Shown: positions 25,863-27,050 of the stretch, piece by piece
Layout: each line of letters begins with the position of its first letter
Numbering within the stretch: position 1 is the first letter of the stretch
Sequence record: PV610739.1
DNA from: Escherichia phage SP1
Length of the DNA stretch: 44,529 nucleotides
Direction: 5' to 3' (one strand)
Notes under the pieces: generated by a model
What the model was told of the DNA's origin: nothing
The model's database searches: none
What the model saw: only the letters and a program-made list of their open reading frames with translations
Made by a program: the position numbers and the translations under genes

Positions 25863-26835
25863 AATAGATGTTAGGGATGACTAGTAGCGGGGTGGGTACG
25901 GCAATATTTTTGCCCGGCATTTGGAATTGCTGCCGTGAGTAGTTGCCAATAACGCGGTTTTTAGCGATGCGCACATTATTACCCGCCATTCGTATCCCGT
26001 TCATGCGCACATGGTTATAGCCTCCGTTGTTCTCAATGAGCGCACCGGTATATGAAAGCTGGATCAGACTATTACCGATGTGCTGGTCGCCGCCACCGAT
26101 ATTAATCGTTCGGTCGTAGACAAACGGCTTGTTTACCGTCGAGAACGTGACCTGCCCCTGGTTGTTAGTCATGGTGATGCCGGTCCCCGGTGATGGCGGC
26201 GTATTGTTGAATATTACCAGGTCCATATCAACGGCAGCGCCTACGTCGTCAATCCCTCCATAGGACGCATTACGGACAATAATACTTCCGCCATCGAAGC
26301 CAACCGATACGTTACCATCGTCCCAGCGCGCGAACGGGACACCGCCGACTGGTAGCGGCATACTCCCGTTTACATGCACGCGCTGCGCATATCGGCACGT
26401 CATTAGCCGTGATACGTTGGATATGGCGGTGAAGTCCGTTGAGTTAGCCACCAGTAAGCCCGCATTGCGTGACCCCACCGGCAGCACTTCCATAATCACC
26501 CCGCCCCATGTTGGAAGCCCGCTGTATGCGTTATAGGCGTCCTCACCGCGCAAGGTGATTCCGCCATCCCCGTTACGTTGTATCGACGTCACATAAAACG
26601 GGTCTGGCAAGACCAGGGTCTGGTCGAATACCTCAATCACTTCAACCGGATTAGTTAGGGCAACGACCAGTTCGGACCCTGGTGTCAGCGGTGTGTTAAT
26701 GGTCAGCGTCTTGTCAGACTGACAGCGCTGATTAAAGGTAGTGCAAAACGACGGAGCGCGAAGGCCCGCGGTTATCTCCATGACAGGTCTACCGTCGTTG
26801 TAGTCGATTAATATTCCGGCACCCATTATTACCAC
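25861..26835 (-). CDS. reverse-strand Gly/Asn/Thr-rich protein (beta-helix-like)
   Basis: 324 aa, repeated short GxN/NxV-type units, no signal peptide; second gene of reverse cassette. Confidence 0.55.
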   Translation of the reverse strand: MVIMGAGILIDYNDGRPVMEITAGLRAPSFCTTFNQRCQSDKTLTINTPLTPGSELVVALTNPVEVIEVFDQTLVLPDPFYVTSIQRNGDGGITLRGEDAYNAYSGLPTWGGVIMEVLPVGSRNAGLLVANSTDFTAISNVSRLMTCRYAQRVHVNGSMPLPVGGVPFARWDDGNVSVGFDGGSIIVRNASYGGIDDVGAAVDMDLVIFNNTPPSPGTGITMTNNQGQVTFSTVNKPFVYDRTINIGGGDQHIGNSLIQLSYTGALIENNGGYNHVRMNGIRMAGNNVRIAKNRVIGNYSRQQFQMPGKNIAVPTPLLVIPNIY

Positions 26836-27050
26836 TCCCGTGATTTAACTGATACAGTACCGGAAAAATTGCCGTCGCTATCGGCAGACAGGCCAGTGAA
26901 GCGCATGTCAACATCTCCGGCAGGGACTTTTTGCCCGTCAACGTAACGCAACATGCAGCTTCCGTAAGCCACCGTAATGCAATCACCGTTGTTGCGTTCT
27001 ACAGCACAACCGGACAAAAGGACCGCACAAATCATAATTAAAGTTTTCAT
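26829..27050 (-). CDS. small lipoprotein, Cor/Llp-like superinfection-exclusion candidate
   Basis: 73 aa from ATG 27050; signal peptide MKTLIMICAVLLSGC with lipobox; encoded antisense between the two tail fibre genes. Confidence 0.55.
   Translation of the reverse strand: MKTLIMICAVLLSGCAVERNNGDCITVAYGSCMLRYVDGQKVPAGDVDMRFTGLSADSDGNFSGTVSVKSREW

Follow-up and report, generated by a model that had tools for sequence, protein, structure and literature searches.

Phage Rtp encodes a lipoprotein, Rtp45, that has been visualized by cryo-electron microscopy (cryo-EM) on the closed form of the LptDE lipopolysaccharide translocon, where it binds the periplasmic rim near strands β5-8 (PMC12685063). 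Residues 30-35 of Rtp45 form a β-sheet with residues 318-323 of LptD, a hairpin extends up the barrel lumen, and extracellular loop 4 of LptD is moved by as much as 20 Å, a displacement with which binding of the phage receptor-binding protein (RBP) is not compatible (PMC12685063). The same paper, which appeared in PNAS in 2025, presents the RBP of phage Oekolampad (Bas18) solved by cryo-EM on LptDE, and gives the Oekolampad superinfection-exclusion lipoprotein, bas18_0026, which is 35% identical to Rtp45, the name SEOeko. Dependence of Oekolampad on LptD was established by means of resistant lptD mutants (PMC8594841; PMC12685063), and phages Bas83-85 were predicted from the same locus to be LptD users (PMC11990801). 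Here we describe the corresponding locus of Escherichia phage SP1 (sequence record PV610739.1). The whole stretch analyzed, 44,529 nucleotides of one strand read 5′ to 3′ and referred to as the window in the rest of the text, is a Dhillonvirus genome whose closest relatives are Bas83-85. Antisense to the tail genes it carries a gene for a 73-residue lipoprotein that is very probably the outer-membrane superinfection-exclusion partner of an LptD-binding RBP, masking LptD. The lipoprotein as such is already known: many relatives have it annotated as 'lipoprotein', and both the BASEL papers and the LptDE structure paper of 2025 deal with it.

Sequence features place the lipoprotein in the Rtp45 family

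The 73-aa translation, MKTLIMICAVLLSGCAVERNNGDCITVAYGSCMLRYVDGQKVPAGDVDMRFTGLSADSDGNFSGTVSVKSREW, matches the Pfam family PF24052 ('Phage lipoprotein family') over residues 3-73 with 75.4 bits for a cut-off of 27 (E = 3.6e-21), a model on which Rtp45 itself scores 128 bits, and it matches phrog_4281 with E = 3.7e-33. A phmmer comparison with Rtp45 (PDB 9RPS chain D, 'Phage lipoprotein') gave E = 2.1e-8, with an identity of approximately 36%. We aligned 10 members of the family, drawn from Dhillonvirus, the T1-like phages Rtp and Sfin-5, the Klebsiella Webervirus group, the temperate phage mEp021 and the podovirus phiEco32. The positions found to be invariant are the lipobox residues G14-C15, the cysteines C24 and C32, the glycines G22, G30, G39 and G45, V42, and the C-terminal pair E72-W73. 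The counterparts of C24 and C32 in Rtp45 are Cys30 and Cys38, which have the same spacing of 7 residues and are joined by a disulfide in the solved structure; a disulfide is predicted here as well. The segment with which Rtp45 forms its β-sheet is matched by residues 24-29 (CITVAY). NCBIfam contains no model for either the lipoprotein or the RBP. All of the sequence and context features that could be tested assign the lipoprotein to the Rtp45 family (PF24052).

The N-terminus of the protein (MKTLIMICAVLLSGC, lipobox included) has a lysine (K2) in its n-region, followed by a hydrophobic core and the lipobox L12-S13-G14-C15 with an alanine at position +2. The mechanically delimited open reading frame (ORF) opens upstream at TTG 27113, and close relatives annotate ATG 27050 as the start. 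By itself the lipobox pattern is weak evidence and non-significant in the window, where a permissive PROSITE-like rule finds it in 4 ORFs compared to a mean of 1.5 in mononucleotide shuffles. The gene is nucleotide-identical to Bas85_0028, and its product is 100% identical to the proteins of Bas83 and Bas85. Relative to Oekolampad, 22 of the 222 nt differ, affecting 20 codons synonymously and a single one non-synonymously, and 72 of 73 residues are identical to those of bas18_0026, the lone change being A56S. Given the nucleotide identity with Bas85, the dominance of synonymous differences from Oekolampad and the matches to curated families, we conclude that the ORF is a real gene under strong purifying selection. 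A first-pass annotation, made from the letters of the sequence without database searches, had pointed to this 73-aa ORF with its signal peptide and lipobox, at the same coordinates and with the same features that we found. It had also correctly placed the ORF antisense between the J-like and side tail fibre genes, but had overlooked the 321-codon gene that separates it from J.

The lipoprotein gene forms an operon with a gene for a predicted LptD-binding protein

Positions 25800-27200 of the window are 99.0% identical to Escherichia phage RuthEpting_Bas85 and match 155 phage records, nearly all of them E. coli siphoviruses. The 321-aa product of the gene that follows the lipoprotein gene matches PF20051 (DUF6453) with E = 3.8e-119 and, over its full length, the Oekolampad RBP solved on LptDE (PDB 9RPT chain C) with E = 3e-193. 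Compared by tblastn with its Oekolampad counterpart it shows 89.4% identity, 287 of the 321 codons specifying the same residue and 34 being non-synonymous. In light of the work on Oekolampad (PMC12685063, PMC8594841), these matches identify the 321-aa protein, as judged from its sequence, as an LptD-binding RBP capping the J-like central fibre. Since the RBP gene starts only 2 nt past the stop codon of the lipoprotein gene, the two genes constitute one operon, of which the lipoprotein gene is the first. The same order, lipoprotein followed by RBP and antisense to J, was found in Bas85, Oekolampad, HK578, Rtp, Sfin-5 and temperate mEp021, and in these six phages the two genes lie 2 nt apart or overlap by 1 nt.

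A hairpin sits between the convergent stop codons of J and the RBP gene, its T run overlapping the stop codon of the latter. From its sequence it is likely the intrinsic terminator of the plus-strand tail operon and probably serves as a weaker terminator for the minus-strand operon. A consensus terminator scan did not list this hairpin; terminators are annotated at the corresponding place in WFI and mEp021. The features of the locus and the spanin genes discussed below are listed in Table 1.

Table 1. Coordinates of the lipoprotein gene, its parts, its neighbours and the spanin genes in the window.
Feature	Position	Strand	Remarks
i-spanin gene	9715-10053		phrog_2536, E = 6e-34
o-spanin lipoprotein gene	9956-10186		MLRVLTVLIVVLMLSAC...; phrog_5672, E = 1e-25; overlaps the i-spanin gene in another frame
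J-like tail-tip gene	22387-25833	+	
Exchanged end of the J gene	25643-25833	+	approximately 64 codons; swapped with the RBP and lipoprotein genes
Terminator-like hairpin	25840-25862		AGGGGCC-ATCT-GGCCCCT followed by a T run (T6); read directly from the sequence
RBP gene	25861-26826	-	321 aa; DUF6453; homologue of rtp44; starts 2 nt after the lipoprotein stop codon
Lipoprotein gene	26829-27050	-	ATG 27050; TAA stop 26831-26829; 73 aa
Mature part of the lipoprotein	27008-26832	-	Cys15-Trp73; 59 residues
Lipobox	27017-27006	-	LSGC
Signal peptide	27050-27009	-	residues 1-14
Divergent control region	27051-27130		80 bp; between the lipoprotein-RBP operon (-) and the side tail fibre gene (+)
Side tail fibre gene	27131-28909	+	C-terminal Peptidase_S74 chaperone domain

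The operon is exchanged as a cassette together with the end of the J gene

A tblastn search over phage records detected the lipoprotein in 327 of them and the RBP in 438. At an identity of at least 80%, these numbers fall to 62 and 63, respectively, and the full module is covered at the DNA level in 63 of 157 Dhillonvirus-like records. The agreement between the 62 and 63 records found at the protein level and the 63 full-module records indicates that the two genes travel together. The remaining Dhillonvirus-like records align in the flanks only. Among these, HK578 has a divergent allele of the LptD module that is of the Rtp type, and most of those that were listed or examined hold instead two plus-strand genes (phrog_557 and phrog_425) and an antisense cor gene, as does SECphi18, a cassette that has been associated with the use of FhuA (PMC13164509). 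Several records labelled as non-enterobacterial also carry an E. coli-type LptD module at 59-87% identity, and their host labels or annotations look doubtful; examples are OQ221563 'Acinetobacter phage NJ01', MG065670 'Campylobacter phage A121' and NC_054898 'Vibrio phage Vc1', the last of which has the lipoprotein-like sequence within a coding sequence annotated as a tail fibre.

We delimited the exchanged segment by blastn. Between the window and SECphi18, homology stops at 25642 and resumes at 27004, leaving a replaced block at 25643-27003, while the boundaries with HK578 are at 25727 and 27037, the HK578 allele diverging after codon 5. The left boundary with SECphi18 falls approximately 64 codons before the end of J, and the right one directly past the Cys-Ala codons of the lipoprotein. 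The cognate RBP presumably docks on the part of J encoded by this exchanged end. SECphi18 cor is near-identical to the window in its upstream region and over its first 48 coding nucleotides (27004-27050 corresponding to 2011-2057 of the SECphi18 locus), and the two proteins share their first 16 residues, MKTLIMICAVLLSGCA, after which they are unrelated. Based on the common upstream region and these 16 residues, the lipoprotein occupies the functional slot of Cor, which, as far as the sequences tell, is a positional equivalence and not a homology of functional domains. The control region and the export signal are constant, whereas the tip of J, the RBP and the mature domain change as one along with receptor specificity. 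The position of the cassette junction, exactly at the boundary between signal peptide and mature domain, is the one detail that we found unstated in the cited literature.

A model for the masking of LptD

For the allele of the window we infer lipidation, binding to LptD, exclusion and the timing of expression as follows. The lipoprotein gene would be transcribed leftwards from the control region together with the RBP gene, and the precursor would be exported, cut by signal peptidase II at Cys15 and lipidated on this residue. According to the standard Lol sorting rule, an alanine at position +2 directs a lipoprotein to the outer membrane; since Ala occupies this position here, the mature protein is predicted to end up in the inner leaflet of that membrane. 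There, the mature domain, with its predicted disulfide Cys24-Cys32 followed by a β-hairpin, would bind the periplasmic rim of the LptD barrel in the manner of Rtp45. The hairpin would enter the LptD lumen and extracellular loop 4 would be pushed outwards, such that the RBPs of LptD-dependent phages, including that of the phage itself, could not dock. As a result, secondary infection would be excluded, and progeny would not be wasted on the LptD of infected cells or lysis debris.

Several observations weigh against this model. Expression of SEOeko in E. coli failed, and the exclusion role of Rtp45 rests on its structure and on a proposal made in 2006, with no plating assay in the accessible part of the paper (PMC12685063). 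Considering the identity of approximately 36% to Rtp45 and the differing region 55-68, the contacts with LptD may differ. Co-transcription of the lipoprotein gene with a structural gene suggests that the operon is expressed late, which fits the protection of progeny better than early exclusion. A promoter scan of 27051-27130 found no consensus promoter. Finally, an AlphaFold2 model of the lipoprotein computed from a 4-sequence alignment was uninformative, its mean predicted local distance difference test score (pLDDT) of 45 and predicted template modelling score (pTM) of 0.27 being too poor for use; AlphaFold 3 predictions of such complexes are reported to be wrong (PMC12685063).

Alternative roles for the lipoprotein

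The failed expression of SEOeko would also fit toxicity, and in Rtp45 it is the lumen of LptD that the hairpin passes through (PMC12685063). Both speak for a lipoprotein that acts mainly on the function of LptD, plugging the translocon and weakening or altering the envelope, with exclusion as a side effect. We consider this improbable. Rtp45 was co-expressed with LptDE, with no problem reported (PMC12685063); the lipoprotein strictly co-varies with receptor specificity, Cor replacing it when the receptor is FhuA, which points to receptor masking as the function under selection; and to disrupt the outer membrane the phage possesses a separate spanin pair. A related but distinct proposal, based on homology with Rtp45 and in our view doubtful, is that besides masking LptD the mature domain plugs the essential lipopolysaccharide translocon, its hairpin in the LptD lumen slowing the insertion of lipopolysaccharide. 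If true, such a plug might explain the failed expression of the near-identical SEOeko, and the 59-residue domain would be a phage-evolved scaffold for an inhibitor of LptD.

Exchange of the two genes as a unit, their spacing of 2 nt within one operon and the equally tight linkage in six other phages could also reflect a role of the lipoprotein as an assembly factor or chaperone of the RBP, or as a component of the tail tip, rather than as a receptor mask. Such a role is very unlikely. Signal peptide and lipobox direct the lipoprotein out of the cell interior, to the periplasm and outer membrane, whereas the RBP, which lacks a signal peptide, assembles in the cytoplasm. In addition, the Oekolampad RBP alone is soluble and binds LptDE, and Rtp45 was seen on LptDE and not on the RBP (PMC12685063). 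Moreover, Klebsiella Webervirus and Kuravirus phages have unlinked genes for lipoprotein and RBP.

The slot, upstream region and signal peptide held in common with SECphi18 Cor, and a match to phrog_1119 (Cor) with E = 6.4e-4, raise the question of whether the lipoprotein is a divergent member of the Cor or Llp families that blocks FhuA, a reading that we regard as most improbable. The phrog_1119 match is confined to residues 1-30, which is explained by the signal peptide common to both proteins and the exchange boundary at the mature domain, whereas for the authentic Cor of SECphi18 the match spans residues 1-72 with E = 9e-28. The mature domains of the two proteins gave no alignment at E≤100. 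With the FhuA-type cassette, including its pair of membrane proteins, replaced by a DUF6453 RBP of the LptD type, membership in the Cor family was rejected. Membership in the Llp family was likewise rejected, no similarity being found in the PDB, Pfam and PHROGs searches: the PDB matches of the lipoprotein at E≤10 included no Llp chain, though Llp-FhuA structures are in the PDB, and the Pfam and PHROGs searches returned no Llp family match. The first-pass annotation had regarded the sequence as not recognizably related to Cor or Llp and had proposed a search with profile hidden Markov models of both families; our profile and PDB searches agree with its opinion, with the Cor match ending at residue 30 and no Llp family match. 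Its functional proposal, a candidate for receptor masking in the manner of Cor and Llp, gains support from the Rtp45 family membership, the near-identity with SEOeko and the slot occupied by Cor in sister phages. Among the receptors that it had named (FhuA, BtuB and LptD), LptD is indicated by the evidence.

The last alternative, a chance frame bearing one of the lipobox-like patterns that occur about 1.5 times per shuffled window, or an o-spanin-like (Rz1-like) lysis lipoprotein, can practically be dismissed, given the purifying selection, the matches to curated families, the absence of any spanin PHROG match and the separate Rz/Rz1-like pair at 9715-10186. The o-spanin of this pair is the sole other credible lipoprotein in the window.

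The control region is shared by phages with different cassettes

The control region contains a perfect 9-nt inverted repeat, TTGGTTGAG / CTCAACCAA, at 27068-27076 and 27093-27101, with a spacer of 16 nt. No second copy of the repeat and no repeated motif family was found in the window; the upstream region that had been called motif-bearing in the first pass thus holds one perfect inverted repeat and not a repeated motif. The region is shared with Oekolampad, HK578 and Bas85 and also with SECphi18, which carries Cor, and is hence conserved independently of the receptor cassette. The inverted repeat is largely conserved in sister phages whichever cassette they carry, and shows no compensatory changes, which lends no support to either an RNA hairpin or a dimer operator. 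A repeated regulator motif of the kind formed by the Rtp52 sites of phage Rtp is unsupported in the window, as the inverted repeat occurs only once. A minus-strand promoter match at 27058-27031 overlaps the start codon and therefore cannot serve the lipoprotein gene. By eye, a weak minus-strand candidate can be discerned in TTGCAT (27109-27104), 17 nt, TGT-AATACT (27089-27081); this putative promoter, TTGCAT-17-TGTAATACT, overlaps the inverted repeat.

Relatives of the lipoprotein in other phage groups

Podoviruses of the Kuravirus/Gordonclarkvirinae group encode an Rtp45-family lipoprotein (PF24052, E = 2.4e-36) in their early region, such as phi32_106 of phiEco32 (2968-3249 of the locus). 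They also encode a DUF6453 protein homologous to the LptD-binding RBP (E = 2.8e-23, 26% identity over approximately 200 aa), namely Bas89_0015 (2659-3690 of the locus) and SU10 gp019 (3159-4190 of the locus). The DUF6453 gene lies directly 3′ of the gene in the tail-needle position (gp18 by RefSeq locus-tag number) and is unlinked to the lipoprotein gene. The SU10 structure paper makes no mention of gp19, and in the literature searched, the one paper in which LptD occurs together with any of these names brings it up for Dhillonvirus alone. Judging from these homologues, Kuravirus/Gordonclarkvirinae phages may use LptD as their terminal receptor.

In the Klebsiella Webervirus group, the lipoprotein gene (1501-1728 of the locus in phage Opt-817) lies in the replication module, between the genes for a Holliday-junction resolvase and a Dam methylase, and is distant from the DUF6453 RBP gene. 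This position suggests that the lipoprotein is expressed early and independently there. In the temperate lambdoid phage mEp021, the lipoprotein-RBP pair (mEp021_81/80, 1762-2915 of the locus) lies antisense to J, and if it is expressed from the prophage, lysogens could resist LptD-dependent phages.

The locus illustrates how small siphophages match receptor recognition to receptor masking by keeping both in one exchangeable block, and it helps to predict from sequence which receptor a phage uses and which phages exclude one another. As LptD is an essential antibiotic target, proteins that bind it are also of practical interest.

Comparison with known receptor-masking lipoproteins

The closest counterparts of the lipoprotein are bas18_0026 of Oekolampad and the proteins of Bas83 and Bas85, which have an equal position and orientation, the same RBP partner and the same predicted receptor, LptD; in Oekolampad the partner RBP is more diverged than the lipoprotein. 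Rtp45 comes next. It has in common with the lipoprotein the lipobox, the disulfide pair, a VPAG-(E/D)-(V/I)-D-x-R motif and the C-terminal EW, and its gene likewise lies immediately upstream of an rtp44-type RBP gene, antisense to J. Past residue 55 of the lipoprotein, however, Rtp45 differs in length and sequence, and the RBP of Rtp, a Drexlerviridae phage, is only about 33% identical to that of the window.

Like the lipoprotein, Cor and Llp are small lipoproteins whose genes neighbour those for receptor recognition, and masking acts from the periplasmic face of the receptor. Cor, which is found in T1, phi80, N15 and FhuA-using Dhillonviruses such as SECphi18, is a small outer-membrane lipoprotein encoded antisense next to J that masks the phage's own receptor. 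Its mature domain, however, is unrelated and its target is FhuA instead of LptD, and its partners are two small membrane-associated proteins encoded on the plus strand, whereas the partner of the lipoprotein is a DUF6453 RBP. Llp of T5 (PDB 8A60, with FhuA) also faces the periplasm and has its gene next to that of the RBP, and it alters the extracellular loops of its receptor such that RBP binding is blocked (PMC12685063). The two differ in how this is achieved, Llp acting through long-range allostery in FhuA and Rtp45 through direct displacement of LptD extracellular loop 4 (PMC12685063). The family of the lipoprotein is a third one, directed at LptD and comparable in action to Cor and Llp.

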